51,015 nucleotides of DNA from a virus (taxonomy: Duplodnaviria; Heunggongvirae; Uroviricota; Caudoviricetes), in IMG/VR virus record IMGVR_UViG_2721755676_000003, positions 1 to 51,015 of that record; one strand, written 5' to 3'. Positions 1,719-48,655 of the stretch are shown piece after piece. Position numbers and translations under genes: made by a program. The notes beneath the pieces were generated by a model that was not told the origin of the DNA, searched no databases, and saw only the letters and a list, made by a program, of their open reading frames with translations. How positions within the stretch are numbered: the first letter of the stretch is position 1; each line of letters begins with the position of its first letter.

Positions 1719-2804
1719 TTAGTCCACGTATTCCGGTTTCATATCCGCCAGGATGATGCTGAACTGACCATGCAGTTCGTCGCCCAGATGGCGTTTCGAC
1801 GATGCAAGAACGCGCTCTACTTCTGCGAACCGCGCAGCTGCATCGGGCTCATCTGAAGGTGGCAAGGAATTGATGGCTGCTTCGACTTTGTTCCGTGCAT
1901 CAACCAGGTAATAACGCTTCACGGCCTTGTTTTTCAGCTCAGTGAACAGGGCAGAACCCAGCGTTGATTTCACGGTTTCAATATCTGCGCGCAGAGCTTT
2001 AGCGCTATCCACATCCTGAGCCGCCTCGATGCGATCACGGAAATCATCAGCAAGTGCATCGATGTTTTGAGCTGATTCCTGAGCCATTTGAGTCGTAGTT
2101 ACGTTGTCACCTGAAATGTCTGCAAGGCTAACGTGCTGCGCCGGTGCGGGGTTTACCTCTCGTTCTTCACGGCGATCATCGAGCTCATCCGGGGTGTAAA
2201 CACCCAGAATTACATCCGGGCAGAACAGTCTCGCCCAGCGTTTGACTGCCAGGTACGCCAGCTGCTGGCGAGGGTCGTCAGCCCAGAGGGTAGAATTTCG
2301 GGTACGGGCCTGAGCCAGCAGCAAATCGAGTTCTCTCGGCTGATCTTCGCCTTTAAGCGTTGCGCGGATAATGATGCCGATCCCGGCTTCGTCAGCCAGG
2401 GTCCAGCCCGGGACGCGGTACTCGCCTTTGTCGCCTTTACGGATATTGAATTTTCCAACGACCTTTTCCCATGGCCCGTACCATTCATATTCAAAGCGGC
2501 TGGCCAGCACGCCGCTTCGTGAAATGACGGCATTAACCAGCTGCGCTTCATACCCGAGCACACCGTTAATCAGGTGCGTTTTCTGCGCCACGGCAAAGGG
2601 ATTCATCTGCCACTGTGCTGCTTGCATCGCTACAGCCATGCAGTCGGCCTGGTTGCCCTGCAGGTGTTTAGGAACGGTCGCGGTGCCTTGCGCCATGATC
2701 TGCGCAAATGTGCTGATGGCGTTCAGATACTGGGAATCGAACAGAGCCACGTTGGAGTTAATAACGGTGTTCTGGTCAGCAACGGTAACGTTTGTGTTAT
2801 GCAT
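1719..2804 (-). CDS. recT: RecT-family single-strand annealing protein
   Basis: 361-aa ORF immediately downstream of a large RecE-like exonuclease gene on the same strand; N-terminal region resembles RecT/Bet-type annealing proteins; family assignment from recall, not a search. Confidence 0.6.
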   Translation of the reverse strand: MHNTNVTVADQNTVINSNVALFDSQYLNAISTFAQIMAQGTATVPKHLQGNQADCMAVAMQAAQWQMNPFAVAQKTHLINGVLGYEAQLVNAVISRSGVLASRFEYEWYGPWEKVVGKFNIRKGDKGEYRVPGWTLADEAGIGIIIRATLKGEDQPRELDLLLAQARTRNSTLWADDPRQQLAYLAVKRWARLFCPDVILGVYTPDELDDRREEREVNPAPAQHVSLADISGDNVTTTQMAQESAQNIDALADDFRDRIEAAQDVDSAKALRADIETVKSTLGSALFTELKNKAVKRYYLVDARNKVEAAINSLPPSDEPDAAARFAEVERVLASSKRHLGDELHGQFSIILADMKPEYVD

Positions 2805-2813
2805 ATATCCCCC

Positions 2814-5558
2814 TTATGCCTGAGCGCGCAGCGCTTCGAGGCGGCGCAGGTCGAAGTCGTTCAGTTCATCTGTGTAATCGGTAGTGATCGGCGCTGGCCA
2901 TTCGCCCGTATCGAATCCGGTTGCGATGGCGCGCATTGTTTTGCGGTACTCGAGCATGCCCAGTTCCAGCAGTTCTGCGGATGCCTCAATGATGGCAATC
3001 CAGTGGTAGTTCTCGTCTTTGTTGACGAAAATCCAGAAGAACTGGTCCAGCGCCGCGGTCTCGCAATACATAGCCGCGCTGAGGTGATAGTCACGGTCAA
3101 TGATTTCCCGGTGCAGCCTGGCGCGCAGGCTTTCCTGCTTAACGTTCCACATGCTGATGGTTTTCAGGTCAGCACCGATACGCACGCCGTCCAGTTCAAT
3201 CTCGAGGTCAGGGCGTACACGCACTTCTAAACCTGTTTCGTCGTCAAAGCCGAAGTAACTCACTTCAACAGCGCGGCTTGGATGTGTCAGCAGCATGCCA
3301 GCGGTCGGGTGCGCCAGTAGTGCTGACTGAATTGCCCGCGCTGTGGCCAGCTGCTGGCGGGTAACCAGAATCTTTTCGCCAGGGTTGTCGCGCCAGGAAT
3401 CCAGCAGTTCGTCTGCGAACACTGCATCGGGCTTAACTGATTTAACCGCCTGGATCATGTCTGCTTTGCTGCCGGAGACTTTCAGCGGCGTTGGTTTCTG
3501 CGCATCCTGTGCGACCAAATCAGGATTGATGATCGCTAATTGCTCGATTAGCGCATCACGGCTGCCGCTGGTTTTAACCGGCACGGGCAGGGTGGCGTTG
3601 TACTCTTTAATGCATGCCTTCATTGCAGCTGCTGTCTGCTTCTGGCCTTCTTCAATACGCTGGTACTCAGCTGGGAGAGCCATATAGCTTTGAGCCGTTT
3701 CTTCCAGGCTCGCGCCAAGCGGCACTGGAGCGGGAAGGGCTGCGTTATGTTCTTCAAGCAACGCTTTAATCTCGTCAGCGCTCAGCAGTGCCGGCAGGCT
3801 GGCGTTGTACCCGTCGATGAACTCACGCAGAGTAGCGGTGGTAGTGAAAGCTCCCTCCGGGATCTCAGGTTCTACGCTGAACTCTGCTTCGAGGTTTTCC
3901 GGTTGCAGTGCAAGGGCGTGCACCAGATTTCCCATATCCAGCACTTTGGATGCTGTGCGCGGGATGGTTTTAGCCACATGGCGTGCGTTGAAGTACATCA
4001 GGCTGACGCGGGCATCTTTCACCTGGGTTGAGCTGATACCGTTTGCTGCGTGATAAACATCATTCGGCAGACCTTCGTAGCGGCCAGGTTCGAAGTATGC
4101 AGGGAACTCCACTTCTGGGTTCGATTCCTGAACGTCAATTGTTGTTTCCGGCAACTGGTCTGCTTCTACGGAATCTGTCTGCGAATTAGCTGCATCAGTG
4201 CCTTCGCCTGGTTGTACCGGATCAGTATTTTCGACTTTCTCTGGCTGAGTCGTTTCCATCTGCACATCGCTGGTGGTCTCCGCTGTAACCGGTGAACGGT
4301 CATCGTTCTGTGTTTGTTTTTCGTTCATCAGGTTATCGATAGTGAACATGCCATCGCCACGGTTCGTGACCTGCGGCTGCGTTGCTAACGATGCTTTTTC
4401 CGCTTCAATCTGCTCGTTAACTTCACTTTCCCAGCTCACCTCTGGATTGTGCCGCGCTGCAGCCAACGTTTCGGCTGTTGGTTTTCCATGATCGCTTTCA
4501 GTCAGATTGGCACTGATGTATCCGCTGAGGCGCCCCGGGTTTTTGTAATATTCCGGGTGTGCGCTTCTGATAAGCGCGAAGATTGATGCGCGTGAATAGT
4601 CGAGAATGCCAGGGGTATTGCGAAGAGCGGCAGACCACTCCTTGAATGGACTTTCTTTAGCTGCGACGATTTCTTTCGCCCTACGGTAAACATATCCGGG
4701 GATATCGTAGACATTGAAATCATCAGGCAGGGTGGCCAGAGCTATTTCACTGTCGAGTGTATCGAGCGTGTGTGTGTAGCCTGAATTACGATCTGTTTCA
4801 TTTCCGCCACCTGCATTTGTGCCGACGTCAGTACGCTGCACGCTGCTAATTCGGTTTCCGGCAGCCCATTCGCGAACGAGAATGCCGCGATCGATATGCT
4901 CGGTGTTGAACCAGGTCTTAAAGAAATGAATGACAAGAGACAGCTCTGTCCGCTTCCCGTCTAACGGGAAGATAGTCTTCAGAGCCTCAACAACCCTGGC
5001 AATTTCGAATTCAGTCGCTTTTTTGAACGCATCGACGTTCTCTGCAGCGAGCAGCATGTTTTGAACGTAGCTGTTATCGACATCCATCTCGAGCTGTTGA
5101 ATTTCATTCTTCTGCTCAGTGTCGATGTGATAGGCGTACTCGTCAGAAATGAACTGAGCCAGAATGCGCTGACGCAGTGGGAGCTTAGCAACCGTGATCA
5201 GCTCAGGCATCTTTGTGTCTTTGGTATCAGTAATACTGCAAGTCGACTGCTCAGAAGAGTTCTGGTAAGAATCTTCATGCTGTAACTTCTCTTTCCACGT
5301 ACGCTGGTCTTCGTCCAGTTCGTAGCGTTTGCACCAGGTGTAATCCACGGTGCTTTCTTCAGGTAGATCGTTGTAAACAGGGAAATCGGTGCGAACCGGT
5401 TTTGAGTAATCCTTACCGCGGCCGGTTTCAATACCAGCATCTTCCAGCTCGACATCGAGCTGCAGGTTGGCGCGGGCTTCAGATTTCGCAGTGAACCAAA
5501 TCACTGCATCTTCTTTGCCAGATTTCTGCGTAGCCTTAACTACATAGAAAAATTCCAT
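2814..5558 (-). CDS. recE: RecE-like exonuclease VIII (large protein with C-terminal PD-(D/E)xK nuclease domain)
   Basis: 914-aa ORF with acidic low-complexity central region and C-terminal D...ExK-like motif (RPDLEIELDGVRIGADLKT); paired with recT as in Rac-type prophages; RBS AGAGGA upstream of ATG. Confidence 0.6.
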   Translation of the reverse strand: MEFFYVVKATQKSGKEDAVIWFTAKSEARANLQLDVELEDAGIETGRGKDYSKPVRTDFPVYNDLPEESTVDYTWCKRYELDEDQRTWKEKLQHEDSYQNSSEQSTCSITDTKDTKMPELITVAKLPLRQRILAQFISDEYAYHIDTEQKNEIQQLEMDVDNSYVQNMLLAAENVDAFKKATEFEIARVVEALKTIFPLDGKRTELSLVIHFFKTWFNTEHIDRGILVREWAAGNRISSVQRTDVGTNAGGGNETDRNSGYTHTLDTLDSEIALATLPDDFNVYDIPGYVYRRAKEIVAAKESPFKEWSAALRNTPGILDYSRASIFALIRSAHPEYYKNPGRLSGYISANLTESDHGKPTAETLAAARHNPEVSWESEVNEQIEAEKASLATQPQVTNRGDGMFTIDNLMNEKQTQNDDRSPVTAETTSDVQMETTQPEKVENTDPVQPGEGTDAANSQTDSVEADQLPETTIDVQESNPEVEFPAYFEPGRYEGLPNDVYHAANGISSTQVKDARVSLMYFNARHVAKTIPRTASKVLDMGNLVHALALQPENLEAEFSVEPEIPEGAFTTTATLREFIDGYNASLPALLSADEIKALLEEHNAALPAPVPLGASLEETAQSYMALPAEYQRIEEGQKQTAAAMKACIKEYNATLPVPVKTSGSRDALIEQLAIINPDLVAQDAQKPTPLKVSGSKADMIQAVKSVKPDAVFADELLDSWRDNPGEKILVTRQQLATARAIQSALLAHPTAGMLLTHPSRAVEVSYFGFDDETGLEVRVRPDLEIELDGVRIGADLKTISMWNVKQESLRARLHREIIDRDYHLSAAMYCETAALDQFFWIFVNKDENYHWIAIIEASAELLELGMLEYRKTMRAIATGFDTGEWPAPITTDYTDELNDFDLRRLEALRAQA

Positions 5559-5698
5559 GTGAGATCCTCTTTTTTGGATGTAAGATCCCCGGGCCAGAGA
5601 TAGCGCCCATTGGGTGAACTTTGGTTTTTTAAGTAGTTTTCCGGTGTAACTTTGGTCGGGAGCACCGGACGTACGGGCCGCCTTGCGCGGCTTTTACG

Positions 5699-5863
5699 TT
5701 ATGCCTCGTGCGCCATTTGGTCGTACGAAGAACAACGTTCAGAGCAGTATTCTTTTTCTTTGCGCGCCAGCTGTGAGCCGTTGCGATAGAGAAGGATACT
5801 TTTGACTACTTCCTCCGGTTTAACCGGATTGCCGCAGTACCCGCATTTCGTTGAGTTACACAT
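5699..5863 (-). CDS. Small Cys-rich (zinc-ribbon-like) protein, 54 aa
   Basis: Hand-translated ORF MCNSTKCGYCGNPVKPEEVVKSILLYRNGSQLARKEKEYCSERCSSYDQMAHEA, below the ORF-track size cutoff; CxxxxCxxC...CxxxC pattern; sits where Rac-type prophages carry small early genes. Confidence 0.3.
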   Translation of the reverse strand: MCNSTKCGYCGNPVKPEEVVKSILLYRNGSQLARKEKEYCSERCSSYDQMAHEA

Positions 5864-5972
5864 CTGGATTCCCCTTTTGCGCCAGCAGGTAGCACAAGCG
5901 GCGAAGAATCACCTCGAAGAAGTTCAGCTTTACAGCCTGCTGCCGTCCTGGTTTGCGTGCGAAATCAATCAT
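5856..5972 (-). CDS. Small ORF (38 aa), translationally coupled to the Cys-rich ORF
   Basis: Hand-found ORF MIDFARKPGRQQAVKLNFFEVILRRLCYLLAQKGNPDV with RBS GAGGGTGAG 5 nt upstream; stop overlaps the next ATG by 8 nt. Confidence 0.2.
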   Translation of the reverse strand: MIDFARKPGRQQAVKLNFFEVILRRLCYLLAQKGNPDV

Positions 5973-6123
5973 TCTCACCCTCGTTTGCCTTATCGCCGGC
6001 CAGCGGAACGTTTACACCTGATGCGCGTTAATCTCTCCACCTCATCCGACTGTTCGTATGCCGTCGGCGGCTACTTCGTGGGCTCCATGCCTTGGTGGTT
6101 CGTAGTGCGTCTTGGTGATCTTG

Positions 6124-6152
6124 ATTAAATCACTGGTTTATGTTCGTGTCAA
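6124..6152 (-). promoter_or_regulatory. PL-like early leftward sigma70 promoter (-35 TTGACA, 17-nt spacer, -10 TTTAAT)
   Basis: Read on minus strand: TTGACA-cgaacataaaccagtga-TTTAAT; lies just downstream of the cargo-operon terminator and upstream of the small ORFs/recE/recT/xis/int. Confidence 0.4.
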
Positions 6153-6166
6153 TGTGTGGTTGATGT

Positions 6167-6190
6167 TAATTGTAAATCTGAGGTTTATAT
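6167..6190. promoter_or_regulatory. Putative operator (OL-like), motif TAAAT-N4-GGTTTA shared with the repressor/cro intergenic region
   Basis: taaatctgaggttta here versus taaatctgtggttta and taaatatttggttta near 8255-8319; additional ACTGGTTT half-motifs at about 6131 and 6191. Confidence 0.4.
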
Positions 6191-6302
6191 GACTGGTTTT
6201 TGTGACGTGCCTGCCGAATCGCAGGCAAAAAAAATCCCGACACAAAGGTCGAGATCGAAAAGTTTGGAGCGGCGGCTTGGAGGTGGAACAGATGTATGAG
6301 TT

Positions 6303-6328
6303 ATTAAAAACCCGGCACGGAGGCCGGG
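6303..6328 (-). terminator. Rho-independent terminator ending the repressor-downstream cargo operon
   Basis: Minus-strand reading: stem CCCGGC, loop CUCCGU, stem GCCGGG, then UUUUUAAUAA, beginning 5 nt after the stop of the 310-aa ORF. Confidence 0.55.
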
Positions 6329-6332
6329 TCGG

Positions 6333-7265
6333 TTAGTTAAGACTTTTAATCATATAGTTACGTCTAGAGATCTTTAATCTGTCATTATGAATTTCTGTAA
6401 CGCTAGCAACCATTGATACGTGTGAGCCTACTTTAAATCTTGACTGTATTTCACTAAGCATATCAATAGGATATGATGCCTTTATCTTTCCGTCAGCGTT
6501 CACCACTTCGAGTTTGCCATACATAGAGAGCAGTGATAGCTCACCTGTGATAATTTCATTCCACGGTTTGGATATTTCCGTGAAAGCTAACCTTTTTGTG
6601 AGCCTATCAATAGCTTCTTTGTTTAAGGAAACCGAACGCCTACCTTCACTTAACGGTCCGATCCAAGATAATTCTAGTGCTAAGCCATTTCGCTCGCACT
6701 CTTCTACAATGTTTTTAAGGTTATGCGTTGAATTCGACCCAATTTCAGCAAGTTTAGAAATAAATGAATCTTCGTCAGTGGCCTCTAGTACTGAGAAAAT
6801 TTCTTTTACAGCATGGCTAGAAACCGTATCAACCAGTTCACATGCCCCTGTGGAGAACGTTACGGCTAGCTTTGTTGAACCAGGCCTCAAATCAGCCAGT
6901 CTCATATCTAGAGACTGCTTTATCCCTACAGGTACCTTGCGTGAGTCTTTTCCTGATGAAATCCGATGTACGGCTTTTTGAACTAGGCCAGCAAGGTTTC
7001 CAGAAATGACAGAAAGTAATTCCAGAGGCATAGTTCCTGCGTCAACAAGAAAACCTTTGAACCTTAACTCCATGAAATCTTGGAGCGGGTGCTCTATCTC
7101 AGCAGATCTCAGTTCAGCCCTCAAATCGCTTAAATGGGAATCTAAGCTGCGCGCTAAAATTCTGTCGGCAAGAGTCATTTCATGAGCAGGGCCGATTTTG
7201 TTCATACGATCCTGAATGAACGCAATCCTTTGTTTTAATGGTATAAATTTTGGCTCTGTGCTCAT
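6333..7265 (-). CDS. Uncharacterised 310-aa protein, second gene of NTase-led operon
   Basis: 310-aa ORF; start ATG overlaps upstream gene stop (ATGA coupling); no motif I can assign; soluble. Confidence 0.6.
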   Translation of the reverse strand: MSTEPKFIPLKQRIAFIQDRMNKIGPAHEMTLADRILARSLDSHLSDLRAELRSAEIEHPLQDFMELRFKGFLVDAGTMPLELLSVISGNLAGLVQKAVHRISSGKDSRKVPVGIKQSLDMRLADLRPGSTKLAVTFSTGACELVDTVSSHAVKEIFSVLEATDEDSFISKLAEIGSNSTHNLKNIVEECERNGLALELSWIGPLSEGRRSVSLNKEAIDRLTKRLAFTEISKPWNEIITGELSLLSMYGKLEVVNADGKIKASYPIDMLSEIQSRFKVGSHVSMVASVTEIHNDRLKISRRNYMIKSLN

Positions 7266-7735
7266 ACTACAACCCTCGCTAAACCTTTTGGCGTTTCCTC
7301 TCTATCGTATCCAAAGCACCCTCGCCAATACATCCTGTCGTTTGTATAATCAGACTTTGGATCCCCTTTGAAAAGAGGTAAAAGGTCAATATGATAATTT
7401 AACTTTATAAAATCCCTATCCAAGAGACTTTCAACCTGAGGGGCAAACATTATAGGAATGGCATTTATAGCATCAAAATCCATAACAACTAGTATATCGA
7501 CATCATCGGGATCTAGTTTTTCAGTTGTAAATGAGCCGTCTACCCAAATTTCCAGAAAGCAATTAAATTGCTTATTAAGAACGCGCAAGTTGGTAATTAA
7601 CTGTATGAAATTACAGTATAGCATGGATCTACGAGTTGACTTAGGAAAACTATCAACACATATTTTTTTCAACTGGTTGTCATCAATATCATGAAAACCT
7701 GGTGTGAAGAGTGGCGGATAGCATTTCTTAGACAT
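7262..7735 (-). CDS. Small nucleotidyltransferase-fold protein (Pol-beta/minimal NTase signature)
   Basis: 157-aa ORF containing hG[GS]-x9-DxD-hhhh signature (IWVDGSFTTEKLDPDDVDILVVMDFD) typical of minimal nucleotidyltransferases. Confidence 0.5.
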   Translation of the reverse strand: MSKKCYPPLFTPGFHDIDDNQLKKICVDSFPKSTRRSMLYCNFIQLITNLRVLNKQFNCFLEIWVDGSFTTEKLDPDDVDILVVMDFDAINAIPIMFAPQVESLLDRDFIKLNYHIDLLPLFKGDPKSDYTNDRMYWRGCFGYDREETPKGLARVVV

Positions 7736-7860
7736 AAGAAGCGTAATCCCTTACATGTTTTAATTGAGTATGTACCAACGATTTCGGCGATACAGCCGCT
7801 CTATCTAAATCTTTTGATAACTACAAATGTTCTATGCCGCAAAAAGCCTTAAACGAAGCA

Positions 7861-8244
7861 TTAATCTTCTTGAGTACGAATCCGTCCCTTCATGTACTTC
7901 TCATACAGGTCATCTAGTTCTTTCAGACGAATCGCGAAGATGCGGAGCATGTTCTGCTGCTCTTCTTCCGGTAACTGGCGGTAGAGCTCCAGCAAGCGCT
8001 GTTCGTCCGGCTTAAGTCCATCTTTTTCACCAACGTCCTCACCGAGTAACCAGGCGACAGAAATGCCTACAGCGTCGGCTATGGCCAGTGCCGATTTCTT
8101 ACTAATCACGCCTTTTTTGAACCAGCCGTTTACGGCCTGAGGAGTGACTCCAGCTATTCGTGCCAAGTCTGCTTTTGTAACGCCGCGATCAGTGATCTCA
8201 GTAAGGCGCTCTACCAGAACGAGGTTGGGTTCTTCTTTTCTCAT
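7861..8244 (-). CDS. Prophage repressor, HTH (XRE/Cro-CI family, RacR-like, no peptidase domain)
   Basis: HTH segment GVTKADLARIAGVTPQAVNGWFKKG; divergent from cro-like gene across an operator-rich intergenic region; start chosen at MRKEE (alternative ATG at 8274); the ORF-track start at 8346 is implausible because it abuts the cro start. Confidence 0.7.
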   Translation of the reverse strand: MRKEEPNLVLVERLTEITDRGVTKADLARIAGVTPQAVNGWFKKGVISKKSALAIADAVGISVAWLLGEDVGEKDGLKPDEQRLLELYRQLPEEEQQNMLRIFAIRLKELDDLYEKYMKGRIRTQED

Positions 8245-8250
8245 AGGGTC

Positions 8251-8319
8251 ATTGTAAATATTTGGTTTATACATACAATAAATCCAAGATTTGCATGAAA
8301 TATAAATCTGTGGTTTACT
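8251..8319. promoter_or_regulatory. OR-like operator/promoter region (two TAAAT-N4-GGTTTA repeats; PR candidate -35 TTGCAT, -10 TTTACT)
   Basis: Repeats at about 8255-8269 and 8304-8318; the second overlaps the candidate PR spacer/-10 upstream of the cro-like gene RBS AGGAG. Confidence 0.4.
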
Positions 8320-8346
8320 TTTGCTGTTAATAAGCAGGAGAAGCAC

Positions 8347-8574
8347 ATGTCCGCACTCGATAAAGCAATTAAAGCCGCTGGCTCAGCCAGAAAGCTCAGC
8401 ATCGCGCTTGGTGTGACGAGTATGTCTGTAAGTCATTGGAAGAATCGTGACCAAGGGATCGTCCCGCCAAGTTATATATTCCCGATTTTCAAAATGACAG
8501 GCGTAACTCCCCATGAGCTGCGCCCCGATCTCTATCCAAACCCAACAGACGGTTTACCTAAACAGGAGCCCTAA
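8347..8574 (+). CDS. Cro/YdaS-like HTH protein
   Basis: 75-aa ORF, divergent from repressor, strong RBS; HTH-like SARKLSIALGVTSMSVSHW. Confidence 0.6.
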   Translation: MSALDKAIKAAGSARKLSIALGVTSMSVSHWKNRDQGIVPPSYIFPIFKMTGVTPHELRPDLYPNPTDGLPKQEP

Positions 8575-8576
8575 CA

Positions 8577-9128
8577 ATGCAAACTGTTTCATTTCAACAG
8601 AGTAGCAGAGCTTCCTCTAATCCACTGATATTCCCATGTCATCAAAGCGAATCTGCAACGCAGGATATTGATCATCGCGATATTTGTTCTGCAGTCCGGG
8701 CGTGGGCAGCGGCAGAAGGGCGCTTAGCTGTTGCGCTTCATATCCAAGAAGCGGCGGAAGAACTTCAACTTGATGGCGTGGATTTCTCAGGCCAGGCAGA
8801 TGTCTGGAACGTGAAGCTGTTCCGTTGGTTGGACAATAAAGACGATTCCGCATCCTACCGTAGAAACGTCGAGCAACTGTTACCCGCGATCATGTCTGTA
8901 TTGCCGCTTCGATACCGCGACCGTGTCGTAAAGAACGACTCGTTTGCTTACCGAATGGCACGGCTGGAAAAAGAGGTTAGTGAGGCGAAGCAAGCGCTGA
9001 TGCTCGATGCACCAAAGAAGGAAAAGCTGAAGGAGTTAGGCGAGGGGATTTTCGAAATGTTCAGAGTCGACCCTGACCTAACGGCGCCTTTACTGGCGAT
9101 GGTCACAACCATGCTGGGGGCAATGTGA
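8577..9128 (+). CDS. YdaT-like protein (cII-position regulator)
   Basis: 183-aa ORF between cro-like and O-like genes; segment QLLPAIMSVLPLRYRDRVV resembles recalled Rac YdaT (LIPAILAILPRELRHRL). Confidence 0.45.
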   Translation: MQTVSFQQSSRASSNPLIFPCHQSESATQDIDHRDICSAVRAWAAAEGRLAVALHIQEAAEELQLDGVDFSGQADVWNVKLFRWLDNKDDSASYRRNVEQLLPAIMSVLPLRYRDRVVKNDSFAYRMARLEKEVSEAKQALMLDAPKKEKLKELGEGIFEMFRVDPDLTAPLLAMVTTMLGAM

Positions 9129-9212
9129 AGACTTCAGAAAAGGCGAAAGCCGGTCTGCGCTAACAGAACCGACTTTCAGGTGCAAAAACGGAGTGTAATT
9201 GCGGAGCTAAGT

Positions 9213-10130
9213 ATGTCAAACACAGCTGAAATTATCAATTTCCCCCACAGAACCGAACAACCGGGAGGTCGTATGGCCGAACTGTCGAACGGGTATACCA
9301 AGGTCGCAAACGAGATCCAACAGCTCAAGCCTCGTCTGAGAATGTCAGGCCGGGAGTGGCAGTGTTTTGAGGCGGTGATCTGGCTTACCTACGGCTGGAA
9401 CAAGAAACAGGACCGCGTTACGAATACAGTGATCGCCGAGCTTACTGGGCTGAGTGATTCCCACGTTTCTGATGCGCTCAAATCGCTCGCAGAACGCAAA
9501 ATTATCTTCAGTCAGAAGCAGGGTGTGATGAAAACGGTCGGTATAAATACTGACCTTTCCGCCTGGATTTTAGACAAACCGAAAACGGGAAAAGTCTTCC
9601 CGAAATCGGGAAAAGTGTTACCGAAAACGGGAAAAACCTTCCCGGAAACGGTAGACACCCAAGACTATAACAAGAACAATATTAAAATATCCTCGTCTCG
9701 GAATTCTGACGAATCCCGAAACCAGAAAACTCAAAAGTTTCTCTCACGCCATCCAGAAGCTGCCGCCGGGATATACACCCCGGCAGGTAAATCATGGGGA
9801 TCCGCTGACGACCTCAAGGCCGCTCACTGGATTTACGACAGGCTTCTCACCGTCAACGCATCGCTATCGGAACCCAACTGGGCTGAATGGGCAAACACCA
9901 TCAGGCTGATGCGTGTCCAGGACAAACGTACTCACTACGAAATCTGTGACCTGTTCCAGTGGGCCAACCGGGACGAGTTCTGGAAAGACAACATCCTGAG
10001 CCCTTCGAGTCTGCGCAAACAGTGGGATCAACTCACTACCAAGCGGCTGCGTGCAACCGCAGCGGTAAAACCATCCCGGGGCGGCATCGACCTGCACAAT
10101 ACCGACTGGATTGACGGGGTGCTGGAATGA
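9213..10130 (+). CDS. Replication initiator, lambda O-like (iterons inside gene)
   Basis: N-terminus MSNTAEIINFP...LTYGWNK resembles lambda O (MTNTAKILNF...KTYGWNK); start set at ATG 9213 with RBS GCGGAG; coding region contains iterons plus AT-rich tract. Confidence 0.7.
   Translation: MSNTAEIINFPHRTEQPGGRMAELSNGYTKVANEIQQLKPRLRMSGREWQCFEAVIWLTYGWNKKQDRVTNTVIAELTGLSDSHVSDALKSLAERKIIFSQKQGVMKTVGINTDLSAWILDKPKTGKVFPKSGKVLPKTGKTFPETVDTQDYNKNNIKISSSRNSDESRNQKTQKFLSRHPEAAAGIYTPAGKSWGSADDLKAAHWIYDRLLTVNASLSEPNWAEWANTIRLMRVQDKRTHYEICDLFQWANRDEFWKDNILSPSSLRKQWDQLTTKRLRATAAVKPSRGGIDLHNTDWIDGVLE
9581..9660. repeat. ori iterons: about 3.5 direct repeats of a 21-bp unit (GAAAACGGGAAAAGTCTTCCC-like), followed by AT-rich tract (about 9661-9693)
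   Basis: gaaaacgggaaaagtcttccc / gaaatcgggaaaagtgttacc / gaaaacgggaaaaaccttccc / ggaaacgg... read directly; encodes the KPKTGKVFPKSGKVLPKTGKTFPE peptide repeat. Confidence 0.6.
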
Positions 10131-10875: not shown

Positions 10876-11712
10876 CTAATGATGATAAATACCATCGTCT
10901 AAAGGGGGACCTTCAGCAGTAACCCCCGTGATTCTACTTGGCGGTTCAAAGATGGCCTCACCAAATATCGCATCAAACTCTGCTTTGGTGACTGATAAGT
11001 ATTGCAAGATGAGCTCTAGCAGCTCTCTGTACGTATCACAATGCCATTCAATGTGAGGACATATTTGGGAGAGAACTCTGGTCTTAAAATCATCCAGATT
11101 TTTTGGGACTTCCAGCAAGTTACCAGTGTTTAATGCTTTCGACATAAACTTGTAATTGAGCATGGAGAGAACCATTACTGATACACCTTTCTCTTGCCTT
11201 AACTGATCGAACTTCTCTTGTGCTTGAAGGCTTAGCTTGGCGTATTCGCGATCTCGTTTTGAGTTGACTGGTTCGACGTACTGAAGCGGTTCGTCTGCAG
11301 CATCACCGATACGTGGACAAAAGTATCTATTCCACCAAGCCTCAAAATACCTTTTTTGGAACTCTAGGTATGTCATCCCAATAATATTGGTGTTTTGAGT
11401 GTACTGTTTAGCACCCTGCTGAAGCCCGTGCTTTGAAATAATAAATCCAATGTTAGCCCCGGTTTCATGCATTACCGTGGTGAACGAATGGACCACCGTC
11501 TGAGGTATAGAACTACCCCAGTTTTTGCATTCCACAATGTATCTGATTTTGTCCACGCTCCTAACATCTGTAGCTAGAACATCCACATTCACCGAGCCAC
11601 GCGGTGTTTCTAAATCGACCTCGACTTCTGCAAACAAGCCAACATTACGGAATATACGTTGGACCCCTGTCTGGAGGTCTTGCCAGTTTTCTGGTAATGG
11701 GTCATCGATCAC
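10876..11712 (-). CDS. Mrr-like restriction-endonuclease-fold protein (PD-(D/E)xK) with unknown C-terminal domain
   Basis: N-terminal VDVLATDVRSVDKIRYIVECKNW (D...ExK) typical of Mrr_cat nucleases; opposite strand to the replication genes. Confidence 0.5.
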   Translation of the reverse strand: MIDDPLPENWQDLQTGVQRIFRNVGLFAEVEVDLETPRGSVNVDVLATDVRSVDKIRYIVECKNWGSSIPQTVVHSFTTVMHETGANIGFIISKHGLQQGAKQYTQNTNIIGMTYLEFQKRYFEAWWNRYFCPRIGDAADEPLQYVEPVNSKRDREYAKLSLQAQEKFDQLRQEKGVSVMVLSMLNYKFMSKALNTGNLLEVPKNLDDFKTRVLSQICPHIEWHCDTYRELLELILQYLSVTKAEFDAIFGEAIFEPPSRITGVTAEGPPLDDGIYHH

Positions 11713-16790: not shown

Positions 16791-16810
16791 CACTGTACAT
16801 GCATACAGTG
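16791..16810. promoter_or_regulatory. LexA (SOS) box upstream of dinI-like gene
   Basis: Perfect palindrome CACTGTACATGCATACAGTG (CTGT-N8-ACAG) about 20 nt upstream of the dinI-like ATG. Confidence 0.55.
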
Positions 16811-16828
16811 ATTCGTTGCGGAGGGAAA

Positions 16829-17053
16829 ATGAAAATCGAGCTAACCATTGATCGCATGAAGAAACTTCCTGATGGAGCTATACCTGCGCTCGAGTCAGAA
16901 CTGCTCGAAAGACTCAGCAAGCAGTTTGATGATTGCCAGCTTACGATTAGGCGTGCCAGTAATGATGGTTTGACTGTTTTCTGGGGCGACAAGAAAGAGG
17001 TCGAACATATCGTGCAGGAGACCTGGGAAAGCGCGGACGAGTGGTTTTATTAA
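16829..17053 (+). CDS. dinI: DinI-family protein
   Basis: MKIELTIDR...VQETWESADEWFY matches recalled E. coli DinI (MRIEVTIAK...LQETWESADDWF); start at internal ATG with RBS GAGGGA. Confidence 0.8.
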   Translation: MKIELTIDRMKKLPDGAIPALESELLERLSKQFDDCQLTIRRASNDGLTVFWGDKKEVEHIVQETWESADEWFY

Positions 17054-17159
17054 TCGCGTGAATTTCACTGGAGCAGTTTCAAAGAGTATCGCTGTTTGCG
17101 TTCCCCTGGCTGTTCCCGATTACTGTTTACCGCGTCATTAAGTCGCTCTGGGGGAAATA

Positions 17160-17402
17160 GTGTGTAGTGCAGATGCCTTTAATGCAGATGATCAATGGTA
17201 CGACGTGGTCAGAAGGGCCGATAAAGCAGTTATCTATAGCTTCCCGGCTGAAGGGAGATATCTGGTTTATCGAGTAAATGGAATAGTTTCATTACGACCG
17301 TTACTCGAAGAGGAAGAAATCTTCACTCTCAACGGGTTCATGCAATTTGCAAAACGGCTTGGGTACCGAATTACACCACCGTCTGATATTATTCTTTCAT
17401 AG
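17160..17402 (+). CDS. Hypothetical nin-region protein
   Basis: 80-aa ORF with GTG start and RBS GGGGGA; no motif recognised. Confidence 0.35.
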   Translation: MCSADAFNADDQWYDVVRRADKAVIYSFPAEGRYLVYRVNGIVSLRPLLEEEEIFTLNGFMQFAKRLGYRITPPSDIILS

Positions 17403-17441: not shown

Positions 17442-18044
17442 ATGGCGCTAGAATTACAACTTATCAAACACCACTCAGGAATACTGATCCCGGCTACGCC
17501 CGAGACCAGCGATATTCTGCAATCCAAAACCCGGCTCGGCGATGTTCTTGTTGCCGAGTTCAAGCGGGTACGAAACCCGGCATTTCACCGGCGCTTTTTC
17601 GCGCTTCTCAATCTCGGTTTTGAATACTGGGAACCAACCGGCGGGGCTATTTCTAGCAACGAGCGAAAGCTGATTACCGGCTACGCCAAATTCCTGGCTT
17701 CTTATGGCGGGAATGAGGGCGCGCTAATCGATGCTGCTGAGCAGTATCTGGAACAGGTTGCTTACCGGCGCGTCACGAATGGTATTAGCCTGTGCAAATC
17801 CTTCGATGCTTACCGCTCCTGGGTGATCGTCGAGGCAGGGCACTTTGATGCCATTCAGCTGCCAGACGGAACACTCAAGAAGCATCCTCGCAGCATCTCG
17901 TTTGCCAATATGGACGAGCTCGAGTTTCAACAACTCTATAACGCTGCGCTCGATGTCCTCTGGCGCTGGGTCCTGTCGCGTTCATTTCGCAGCCGTGACG
18001 AGGCCGAAAACGTCGCCGCACAGCTGCTTGGCTTTGCGGGGTGA
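17442..18044 (+). CDS. Conserved lambdoid nin-region protein (possibly YbcN/DUF1367-like)
   Basis: 200-aa ORF positioned as in DLP12-type nin regions, upstream of rusA; family assignment by weak recall only. Confidence 0.45.
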   Translation: MALELQLIKHHSGILIPATPETSDILQSKTRLGDVLVAEFKRVRNPAFHRRFFALLNLGFEYWEPTGGAISSNERKLITGYAKFLASYGGNEGALIDAAEQYLEQVAYRRVTNGISLCKSFDAYRSWVIVEAGHFDAIQLPDGTLKKHPRSISFANMDELEFQQLYNAALDVLWRWVLSRSFRSRDEAENVAAQLLGFAG

Positions 18045-46792: not shown

Positions 46793-46929
46793 ATCTGCTC
46801 ACATAGAGTTTAGGCAATAAAATTTACAAAACTCGTAATCCGAAGCGACATAGAAACTTATAAACGAAACGGCGAAGCTTTAAACAATCAGGATAGGTCC
46901 TCTGTCTTGCATGCATACCCAAATGAAAC

Positions 46930-46949
46930 TACTGTATATAAAGACAGTA
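46930..46949. promoter_or_regulatory. LexA (SOS) box upstream of umuD
   Basis: TACTGTATATAAAGACAGTA (CTGT-N8-ACAG) about 15 nt upstream of the umuD ATG. Confidence 0.7.
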
Positions 46950-46964
46950 CAAAAGGTGTGCACT

Positions 46965-47384
46965 ATGGAATTTATCAGGCCTGCGGAACTGCGTGAAATT
47001 CTCGCTCTCCCGCTTTTCAGTGACTTAGTTCAGTGTGGTTTCCCAAGTCCAGCAGCTGATTACGTTGAACAACGTATCGATCTCAATGAGTTACTTGTCG
47101 CTCACCCGAGCTCAACGTATTTCGTCAAAGCCGCGGGCGATTCTATGATCGAAGCCGGGATCAGCGACGGTGATCTGCTGGTAGTGGACAGTTCCAGGAC
47201 TGCTGAGCATGGTGACATTGTCATCGCTGCGGTGGAAGGGGAGTTCACTGTTAAACGCCTGCAGCTGCGCCCGACCGTGCAACTCAATCCTATGAACAGC
47301 GCCTACAGTCCGATTGTTGTTGGCAGTGAAGACACACTGGACGTGTTTGGCGTTGTTACTTTCATCGTTAAATCTGCGAGCTGA
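46965..47384 (+). CDS. umuD: UmuD (Pol V accessory subunit, LexA-like S24 self-cleaving peptidase)
   Basis: [72 protein letters not shown]... near-identical to recalled E. coli UmuD; includes the Cys-Gly cleavage site and Ser/Lys dyad. Confidence 0.9.
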
Positions 47385-47386
47385 AC

Positions 47387-48655
47387 ATGTTTGCGCTCTG
47401 TGATGTGAATTCGTTTTACGCATCATGCGAGACGGTGTTTCGGCCCGATTTGAGAGGGCGGCCAGTAGTTGTTCTCTCGAATAATGACGGCTGCGTAATC
47501 GCGCGCAGCGCCGAGGCCAAAGCCGCCGGAATTACCATGGGAGAGCCTTTCTTTAAGCAAAAGGATCTATTCCGGCGCGCTGGTGTTGTTTGCTTCAGCA
47601 GTAACTACGAGCTGTACGCAGACATGTCGAACCGGGTAATGACGACGCTTGAGGAAATGAGCCCCCGCGTCGAAATTTACAGTATCGATGAAGCTTTTTG
47701 CGACCTGACTGGCGTTCGCAACTGCCGGGACCTGACTGACTTCGGCAAAGAAATTCGTTCTACGGTTCTAAAGCGTACGCACCTGACGGTTGGGGTTGGA
47801 ATTGCGCAGACAAAAACGCTCGCTAAGCTGGCCAATCACGCCGCGAAGAAGTGGCAGAGGCAGACGGGTGGAGTTGTTGATTTGTCCAATATCGATCGCC
47901 AGCGTCGGTTATTGGCAATTGTGCCTGTGGAGGATGTCTGGGGCGTCGGCAGGCGCATCAGTAAGAAGCTAAACGCCATGGGCATCAAAACGGCTCTGGA
48001 TCTCTCAGAACAAAGCACATGGATTATCCGTAAACATTTTAACGTGGTACTCGAGCGAACGGTCCGGGAGTTGCGCGGAGAGCCTTGTCTTGAGCTGGAG
48101 GAGTTTGCGCCGGCAAAGCAGGAAATCGTCTGCAGCCGATCGTTCGGCGAGCGCGTCACGGACTATGAGCAGATGCGTCAGGCTATCTGCAGCTATGCGG
48201 CGCGTGGCGCCGAAAAGCTTCGCGGCGAGCATCAGTATTGCCGTTTTATCTCGGCGTTCGTTAAGACGTCACCTTTTGCCCTGAATGAGCCATATTACGG
48301 TAATAGTGCGTCCATGAAGCTTCTTACTCCCACTCAGGATTCCCGCGACATCATCAACGCCGCGGTAAAGTGCCTGAACAAAATCTGGAAGGACGGCCAC
48401 CGCTATCAAAAAGCAGGAATCATGCTTGGGGATTTTTTCAGCCATGGTGTGGCTCAGCTCAACTTGTTCGATGAGAACGCGCCGCGCGAAGACAGCGCGC
48501 AACTGATGCAGATCCTTGACCAGCTCAATGCCAAAGGAGGAAAGGGCACACTCTACTTTGCAGGGCAGGGAATTCAGCAACAATGGCAGATGAAGCGAGA
48601 AATGCTTTCTCCGCGGTATACGACCCGCTTCCAGGATTTATTAATTGTTAAATAA
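47387..48655 (+). CDS. umuC: UmuC (Y-family translesion DNA polymerase V catalytic subunit)
   Basis: [41 protein letters not shown]... canonical UmuC N-terminus; 422 aa. Confidence 0.92.

Follow-up and report, generated by a model that had tools for sequence, protein, structure and literature searches.

Candidate operator triplets for a small repressor in the immunity region of a Gifsy/Rac-type lambdoid prophage

The viral sequence IMGVR_UViG_2721755676_000003 (Caudoviricetes), analysed here as a window of 51,015 nt, carries between positions 6121 and 8346 a short gene for a helix-turn-helix (HTH) repressor flanked by repeated copies of a 15-bp motif. We conclude, with a probability of roughly 85%, that this region forms the immunity switch of a Gifsy/Rac-type lambdoid prophage, in which the repressor acts at three operators in each of the left (OL) and right (OR) operator regions. 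What the sequences show directly is where the sites lie, that they do not occur at random, that they are conserved and that they co-vary with the repressor. A first-pass annotation of the window had taken the motif copies for OL and OR operators of the adjacent HTH repressor, and across 106 related loci this proposal is strongly supported by the retained position, the conserved half-sites and the joint change with the repressor.

A search of the whole window for TAAATNNNNGGTTTA yielded four exact matches, all on the plus strand and all confined to the two promoter regions OL and OR, and no match in 100 dinucleotide-preserving shuffles of the window. When up to two mismatches were allowed, the window contained 30 matches against 12.3 expected, and two of these weak copies lie in phase between the strong ones. 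The resulting triplets start at 6126, 6149 and 6173 in OL (23 and 24 bp apart) and at 8255, 8279 and 8303 in OR (24 and 24 bp apart). The top family returned by an independent repeat finder was the 21-mer ATTGTAAATCTGAGGTTTATA at 6169, 8251 and 8299, which confirms the ATTGTAAAT flank previously described as shared. The first-pass annotation had named one site at the leftward promoter (PL) and two at OR. Its copies at 6173-6187 and 8255-8269 are exact to the nucleotide and the third, given as 8304-8318, lies 1 nt too far right; the named sites therefore stand, but their number does not, because each region has three sites and the copy at 6126-6140 had been missed. The six sites are:

6126-6140, plus strand: OL1, TAAATCACTGGTTTA, exact match, over the -10 and spacer of PL.
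6149-6163, plus strand: OL2, weak, TCAATGTGTGGTTGA, two mismatches, 23 nt from OL1 and 24 nt from OL3, over the -35 of PL.
6173-6187, plus strand: OL3, TAAATCTGAGGTTTA, exact match, upstream of the -35 of PL.
8255-8269, plus strand: OR3, TAAATATTTGGTTTA, exact match, overlapping the -10 of the repressor promoter (PRM) by 2 nt and covering its spacer.
8279-8293, plus strand: OR2, weak, TAAATCCAAGATTTG, two mismatches, 24 nt from both OR3 and OR1, abutting the -35 of PRM and overlapping the -35 of the rightward promoter (PR).
8303-8317, plus strand: OR1, TAAATCTGTGGTTTA, exact match, over the spacer and -10 of PR.

A seventh, degenerate copy, TATATGACTGGTTTT, with two mismatches (6186-6200, plus strand), begins 13 bp after the start of OL3 and is out of phase with the triplet; among relatives with the operator type of the window, hereafter type A, its conservation is only partial.

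In 43 distinct type-A sites from 12 loci, motif positions 1-5 and 10-15 show little or no variation (1.5-2.0 bits), and positions 6-9 and both flanks vary (0.06-0.9 bits). Conserved blocks around a variable centre are the signature of a dimer on two half-sites, which can be written TAAAYC-N3-GRTTTA. The OL1 sequence is identical in all 11 tabulated type-A loci, with variable flanks, and the OL1-OL3 pair is spaced by 46-48 nt in relatives, which carry a TCAAY...GTTRR site at the OL2 offset. At the other end, relatives keep OR2 as TAAATCCAAAGTTTG, OR1 is likewise conserved and the position of OR3 is kept. Three pseudo-palindromic sites about two helical turns apart at the divergent OR promoters, repeated at a distant PL, form the tripartite pattern of lambdoid operators. 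The immunity regions of lambdoid phages are exchanged as modules, and an ATTGTA flank is common to the copies at 6169 and 8251, as would suit a motif that is a relic of duplication, or of OL-OR module recombination in mosaic phages, and not a binding site. Shared descent alone, however, would not keep just two blocks of 5-6 nt; variation among the four strong copies of this one locus is free at positions 6-9 and in the flanks and absent from the half-sites, and across lineages the half-sites change jointly at OL and OR together with the recognition helix. A relic is accordingly very improbable.

The comparative survey covered 106 related loci from GTDB genomes and IMG/VR contigs and used the loose pattern TAAR-N7-YTTA, which has just 2-8 matches per locus of about 9.5 kb. 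A pair of operators spaced 45-50 bp apart was found at the repressor start, 11-12 nt from the start codon, in 101 of the 106 loci; in 81 of these 101 a second pair, corresponding to OL, lies 541-2500 bp away beside a conserved TTGACA-N17-TTTAAT promoter. Conservation of the motif in related prophages had been set beforehand as a test of the operator assignment, and this test was applied. Phage PHB10 and several E. coli prophages, whose repressors are 94-95% identical over the alignment, have the motif at both places and differ from the window in the genes between the repressor and OL, and in more distant relatives the motif occurs there in variant form. Operator variant and recognition helix of the repressor go together in 99 of the 101 loci, as follows:

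Helix (V/I)TPQAVNGWF: operator TAAA...GGTTTA at OR1, 72 of 74 loci.
Helix (V/I)TPQSVNGWF: operator TAAG...GGCTTA at OR1, 17 of 17 loci.
Helix VSKQAV(T/S)GWF: operator ...GCTTTA at OR1, 4 of 4 loci.
Helix VS(A/S)QSVNNWF: operator ...TGTTTA at OR1, 6 of 6 loci.

The class at motif position 4 (A or G) is the same at OL and OR in all 81 loci that have both. This comparative evidence points to operators that are specific for their cognate repressor, that is, to heteroimmunity. It also bears on the idea that a host protein such as IHF, instead of the phage repressor, occupies the sites. IHF has a role near lambda PL, and by eye OL1 (AATCACTGGTTTA) is one position off the IHF consensus WATCAANNNNTTR. 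The other five sites fit that consensus less well, a host-factor site should not switch to TAAG...CTTA or TGTTTA with the phage helix within the same host genera, and a tripartite 24-bp spacing at both promoters is the pattern of a repressor; we regard binding by a host factor as a highly unlikely explanation of the motif.

The operators are accompanied by three promoter-like sequences:

6124-6152, minus strand: PL-like promoter, -35 TTGACA (6152-6147), 17-nt spacer, TGA, -10 TTTAAT (6129-6124), predicted start at about 6117.
8291-8319, plus strand: PR-like promoter, -35 TTGCAT (8291-8296), 17-nt spacer, TGG, -10 TTTACT (8314-8319), predicted start at about 8326.
8251-8278, minus strand: PRM-like promoter, -35 TTGTAT (8278-8273), 16-nt spacer, -10 TACAAT (8256-8251), 6 nt to the ATG at 8244.

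TTGACA-N17-(T/C)TTAAT is present in all 22 aligned OL regions, and the earlier placing of a minus-strand TTGACA/TTTAAT promoter beside the motif is upheld by this conservation; the copy that overlaps the promoter is, however, the missed one at 6126-6140, and the one named, 6173-6187, sits 21 bp upstream of the -35. The candidate PR (TTGCAT/TTTACT) overlapped by the motif also holds in its location. Its position is conserved in relatives, and other immunity types have TTGACA or TTGACT at the place of the -35, 17 nt before (T/C)TTA(A/C)T. The -10 hexamers of PL and PR are both preceded by TGn, i.e., they are extended -10 elements. Neither PL nor PR was reported by a consensus promoter scan, because both -10s have T instead of A at position 2.

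The PRM-like promoter was absent from the first-pass annotation. The repressor ATG lies 11-12 nt from OR3 in 30 of 31 loci, and by-eye reading places a TAnnnT hexamer (TACAAT, TACACT, TAGAAT or TATTCT) 6-7 nt from this ATG in five of five operator types; the ATTGTA flank at OR is the reverse complement of TACAAT, the -10 of PRM. A -10 this close to the ATG leaves no room for a ribosome-binding site, so that the repressor mRNA made from this promoter is predicted, and probable from the sequence, to be leaderless. A rightward promoter-like sequence, TTGTAA-16-TACAAT at 8252-8279, was considered and rejected, since TACAAT is not kept on that strand in relatives and the TTG of the leftward PRM -35 is. 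Beside OL3, a TACAAT on the minus strand (6169-6174) mirrors the PRM -10 at OR3, and many relatives have a similar hexamer; it lacks a good -35 and may represent either a relic or a second leftward promoter like PL2 of lambda.

The protein expected to bind these sites is encoded as follows:

7861-8244, minus strand: immunity repressor, 127 amino acids, Pfam HTH_3 (E = 3e-7) and Phage_CI_repr (E = 7e-5), HTH followed by a helical C-terminal tail.

Its AF2 (AlphaFold2) model, with a mean predicted local distance difference test score (pLDDT) of 83, has a five-helix HTH domain and then two C-terminal helices (residues 81-90 and 93-125), and the HTH superposes on the DNA-binding domains of the P22 c2 and 434 repressors at 1.9-2.0 Å over 60-64 columns. 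The repressor has the Cro/C1-type N-terminal HTH of CI/LexA-type repressors but not their S24 peptidase domain: none was found in the 127 residues, for which Pfam gives HTH families only, the model shows two helices after residue 80 and the fold matches are restricted to the HTH. A sequence search of the PDB with the repressor found nothing but spurious hits to polyubiquitin, along 23 residues. From one operator type to another, the N-terminal domain diverges and the C-terminal half hardly changes. In public annotations the length of the repressor ranges from 123 to 197 amino acids, a common form being one of 137 amino acids that starts at the ATG at 8274, within the operator region. Comparison with relatives favours the ATG at 8244 (MRKEE...) as the true start; the 137-residue call begins inside OR, and the start codon of this repressor seems to be misplaced in many database entries.

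For a repressor that has no peptidase domain, induction is expected to proceed through a LexA-controlled antirepressor and not through cleavage. Lemire et al. (2011, PMC3121763) showed that three repressors of Gifsy phages with a like architecture, GfoR, GfhR and GtgR, are not cleaved during induction and are displaced from DNA by small antirepressors whose genes follow a LexA-controlled dinI homologue. The window contains a corresponding module outside the immunity region:

16793-16808, plus strand: LexA box, CTGTACATGCATACAG, 20 nt upstream of dinI, found by pattern search.
16829-17053, plus strand: DinI homologue, Pfam DinI (E = 3e-21), phrog_189, first gene of the SOS module.
17160-17402, plus strand: candidate antirepressor, 80 amino acids, phrog_340 (function unknown), in the position of gfoA/gfhA.
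17442-18044, plus strand: DUF1367 gene, after the 80-residue open reading frame.

The order of LexA box, dinI, small open reading frame and irsA-like slot, occupied here by DUF1367, is that of the Gifsy phages, and the same order is found in a Gifsy-type locus (L034) and in Gifsy-2. The 80-residue open reading frame stands between dinI and DUF1367 in many related loci, including a Salmonella Gifsy-type locus, and eight phages in the phage collection have a homologue of it, seven of them, all but EKP1, also encoding this repressor family. Judging by this likeness to the Gifsy phages, the repressor is probably inactivated by the SOS-controlled antirepressor encoded at 16793-17402. A further CTGT-N8-ACAG match, at 7601-7616, falls inside a coding sequence (that of the DUF6932 protein, see below) and was taken as chance. 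The literal reading of 'cI', with real operators and a repressor inactivated by RecA-stimulated self-cleavage, would suit the overall lambda-like layout and the Phage_CI_repr match, but it conflicts with the short protein with just two helices past the HTH, with the uncleaved Gifsy repressors and with the presence of the LexA-box-dinI module, and we hold it to be quite improbable. To judge from its sequence, the repressor is not a homologue of lambda CI but of the non-cleavable GfoR/GfhR type, and 'cI' applies by analogy only.

On the other side of a divergent intergenic region of 102 bp, the rightward operon begins with two regulatory genes, after which come O-like and P-like replication genes:

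8347-8574, plus strand: Cro analogue of the YdaS family, 75 amino acids, Pfam YdaS_toxin (E = 2e-13), ribosome-binding site AGGAG at 8336-8340.
8577-9128, plus strand: CII analogue of the YdaT family, 183 amino acids, Pfam YdaT_toxin (E = 4e-22), phrog_163 CII-like activator (E = 6e-48).

Among solved structures, the Cro analogue matches a chain named 'Cro protein' (3bd1, E = 1e-5). Its recognition helix changes in parallel with the operator type, and in CP-933P of E. coli O157:H7 the footprints of the repressor PaaR2 and of YdaS cover one and the same region (Jurenas et al. 2021, PMC8630535). The operators might on these grounds serve mainly the YdaS-family Cro analogue, or both proteins equally, with the co-variation reflecting the specificity of Cro. 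Lambdoid repressors and Cro proteins share operators, which makes such use compatible with repressor binding, and it is the repressor helix that tracks the operator type in nearly all loci; a site used mainly or equally by Cro is improbable. The CP-933P YdaT site, TTGATT-N6-AATCAA, was also sought; none lies near cro/cII, and its six scattered matches at two mismatches compare with 3.1 expected.

Leftward from the repressor, the window contains two cargo genes and two terminators before OL is reached:

7262-7735, minus strand: cargo gene A, 157 amino acids, Pfam DUF6932 (E = 1e-21), PADLOC PDC-M63A (E = 9e-40), guanine-plus-cytosine (GC) content 34-38%.
6333-7265, minus strand: cargo gene B, 310 amino acids, PADLOC PDC-M63B (E = 9e-44), phrog_6603.
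6305-6330, minus strand: tImm terminator 1, hairpin 6330-6309 followed by U5, 3 nt past the cargo stop codon, from RNA folding.
6226-6256, minus strand: tImm terminator 2, hairpin 6256-6233 followed by U8, from a terminator scan and RNA folding, z = -3.3 (131-nt stretch).

Pfam gave no match for the 310 residues of cargo gene B. The GC content of the two genes (6333-7735) is 34-45%, against 46-54% in the flanks, and by its PADLOC matches the pair is a candidate defence system. Relatives have different genes at this place, among them parA, toxin-antitoxin genes and fumD. Of the lambda-like order cI-cargo-tImm-PL that the first-pass annotation described, the order itself is retained, with terminators after the cargo and an OL-OR distance of 541-2500 bp among relatives; the identification of the first gene as cI is not, given the missing S24 domain. 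A third stable hairpin, GCCUGCGAUUCGGCAGGC (6207-6224, minus strand), follows the two terminators just upstream of OL3 and has no U tract.

Beyond OL, the leftward genes are:

5856-5978, minus strand: open reading frame of 40 amino acids, phrog_22279, the first after PL; some relatives carry a Kil of 68 amino acids here.
5699-5863, minus strand: ydaE, downstream of PL.
2814-5558, minus strand: recE, downstream of PL.
1719-2804, minus strand: recT, downstream of PL.
1121-1378: xis, next to int.
1-1140: int, at the left end of the window.

The assignments of ydaE, recE and recT come from the open reading frame list and from Pfam/PHROG matches, and the same list contains no N-like gene between PL and recE. 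By analogy with the Gifsy phages, in which recE-lacZ fusions are the basis for PL-driven recE transcription (PMC3121763), PL would drive recE here; it might, as the first-pass annotation proposed, extend transcription to xis and int. A leader of about 140 nt downstream of PL (within 5856-6118, minus strand) is conserved across immunity types. We considered a put- or nut-like RNA in this leader and rejected it: the fold is no better than that of shuffled sequences (z = 0.0), and there is no similarity to the kilS region of K-12 Rac. An Rfam search of 5400-9300 gave nothing above the gathering score, an ncS025-like match merely reflecting the two terminators. One sub-threshold match, to the Salmonella small RNA family isrB (5612-5696, plus strand, 26.7 bits against a gathering score of 35), sits between recE and ydaE, both of which are on the other strand.

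The switch can be pictured as follows. The 127-residue repressor would most likely bind as a dimer to the 15-bp TAAAYC-N3-GRTTTA sequence, with three sites 23-24 bp apart at each of two places. As OR1 covers the spacer and -10 of PR and OR2 its -35, occupancy of these sites would shut off the cro, cII, O and P genes. As OR2 abuts the -35 of PRM and OR3 covers its -10, the repressor is expected to stimulate its own synthesis at moderate levels and to limit it at high levels, as in lambda. PRM, a weak leftward promoter, would initiate transcription on the A of the repressor ATG or on a neighbouring nucleotide, giving an mRNA that lacks a leader and that probably runs through the two cargo genes to end at the tandem terminators. 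About 100 bp beyond these, OL1 and OL2 would block the -10 and -35 of PL, with OL3 upstream; when active, PL would read into the 40-residue open reading frame, ydaE, recE and recT. The Cro analogue is expected on the same operators. The conserved helical C-terminal tail of the repressor probably serves cooperative binding and possibly OL-OR looping over 2.1 kb. Upon SOS induction, cleavage of LexA would derepress the dinI-antirepressor module, and its 80-residue product would remove the repressor from the DNA.

Several points weigh against this picture. Its functional claims, namely binding, start sites, autoregulation, looping, Cro binding and the function of the antirepressor, are all drawn from sequence comparison. 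The main weakness of the promoter assignments is that the -10s TTTAAT and TTTACT lack the highly conserved A at position 2; the compensating TGn of the extended -10 is present in type A and not in types B and D, so that the exact start sites are uncertain. The -35 of PRM, TTGTAT, fits the consensus at only three of six positions. Most of the 106 loci are close relatives and hence non-independent, and the association between helix and operator therefore rests on four or five independent lineages. Between repressor and cargo there is a gap of 125 bp with a weak hairpin, so that their co-transcription is uncertain. Finally, the 80-residue open reading frame has no annotated function and no detectable similarity to GftA of Gifsy-2.

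Among known systems, the closest likeness is to the Gifsy phages. Gifsy-1 and Gifsy-3 of Salmonella Typhimurium ATCC14028 (Lemire et al.) have a small repressor made of an HTH and a short tail, as here; the window repressor falls within the size range of this group (about 125-150 amino acids) and has detectable homology to it, with 26% identity to GtgR of Gifsy-2 over 114 amino acids spanning both domains. A homologue with 89% identity, P0079, occurs on more than 1000 Salmonella contigs. A Salmonella prophage that encodes it has repressor, parA ... ydaE and recE on one side and cro, cII, O ... dinI, small open reading frame and DUF1367 on the other, which is the order described for Gifsy-1 and Gifsy-3 of ATCC14028 (PMC3121763). 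This locus has the same type-A operators at OL and OR as the window and differs in its cargo, which is parA instead of PDC-M63. Orthology to GfoR or to GfhR is inferred from this context, and protein-cluster names do not decide which of the two the Salmonella homologue is. According to the same source, GfoR and GfhR recognise different operators, and the gfhR promoter lies between two in-frame AUGs; in the window, the ATGs at 8274 and 8244 are 30 nt apart, with the predicted promoter between them. Operator sequences for the Gifsy repressors are not given in the available part of that text, and our literature search found no other source for them.

The CP-933P switch is a counterpart known in detail from experiment (PMC8630535). 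There, PaaR2 and YdaS footprint a 97-bp intergenic region with three OR sites, and three OL sites lie at PL beyond the paaA2-parE2 cargo; the paaR2 mRNA is leaderless, PaaR2 is octameric and the switch is bistable. Like it, the window combines a repressor that is short and, here by prediction, non-cleavable with a Cro of the YdaS family on the divergent side and a CII of the YdaT family. In both, the intergenic region is of similar size and has multiple operators over PRM and PR, cargo lies beside the repressor, and a second operator triplet is found at PL beyond the cargo. The two differ in that the leaderless mRNA was shown in CP-933P and is predicted here from sequence, in the operator, which is TTTAGT-N4-ACTAAA in CP-933P, and in the -10 of PR, which is TAAACT in CP-933P, with the usual A at position 2, and TTTACT in the window. 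The repressors are distant: identity to PaaR2 is 20% over 81 aligned residues (BLASTP E = 8e-5, in a single comparison; hhalign probability 27%), and only the C-terminal motif LLxx(Y/F)xxxPE(E/D)EQ is common to both.

With lambda (see the summaries in PMC8630535 and PMC7067206), the window shares operators that come in threes at OL and at OR, about 24 bp apart, and are arranged so that the first covers the -10, the second the -35 and the third PRM. Also common to both are a repressor mRNA with no leader (predicted here), an order in which defence cargo, terminator and PL follow the repressor, and an OL-OR distance of about 2.1 kb. Unlike lambda, the window has a repressor that lacks an S24 domain, Cro and CII analogues of the YdaS and YdaT families, no N gene after PL, an unrelated operator sequence and, probably, induction by an antirepressor. 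The neighbourhood of int, xis, recT, recE, ydaE, kil ... repressor, ydaS and ydaT is shared with Rac of E. coli K-12, whose repressor RacR binds the divergent intergenic region (PMC5700373). The alignment with RacR (158 amino acids) is, however, confined to 27 HTH residues, and the PL leader is unlike the K-12 kilS region.

Our findings leave the understanding of lambdoid switches unchanged. The layout is classical, and what is new is the operator sequence TAAAYC-N3-GRTTTA together with the promoter map of an immunity type that is very common in prophages of Enterobacter, Klebsiella, Citrobacter, Salmonella (the Gifsy-type prophage) and E. coli, and for which our literature search found no published operator definition. 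The slot between repressor and OL is a variable cargo site, which in the window holds a candidate defence system. The survey also provides four naturally co-varying repressor-operator pairs for direct tests of specificity. A tentative proposal, which we think may well turn out otherwise, is that few changes in the HTH re-target immunity specificity while the C-terminal domain stays near-identical. The clearest case is Ala37 to Ser (QAV to QSV), with A25S and I30V, which accompanies the change from TAAA/TTTA to TAAG/CTTA; the operator change is symmetric, A:T to G:C at positions 4 and 12, in all OL and OR sites. The conserved C-terminal domain is likely to be the surface for the antirepressor and for oligomerisation. 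Its conservation next to a variable DNA-binding domain fits the cross-reactivity reported by Lemire et al. (PMC3121763), in which GfoA and GfhA each act on both GfoR and GfhR despite the different operators. If one or two residues suffice, these loci would represent a natural minimal recognition code, with heteroimmune phages that answer to a common antirepressor, and re-targeting of this kind would also be a ready source of orthogonal repressor-operator pairs.

Elsewhere in the window, the P-like gene is immediately followed, on the other strand, by a 278-residue open reading frame (10876-11712, minus strand) that has an Mrr_cat restriction-endonuclease domain and matches PADLOC PDC-S02 weakly. 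UmuD-like and UmuC-like open reading frames, recognised by eye from their translations, are located at 46911-48655 (plus strand) with a LexA box at 46932-46947 before them, and may be either further SOS-regulated cargo or flanking host DNA.

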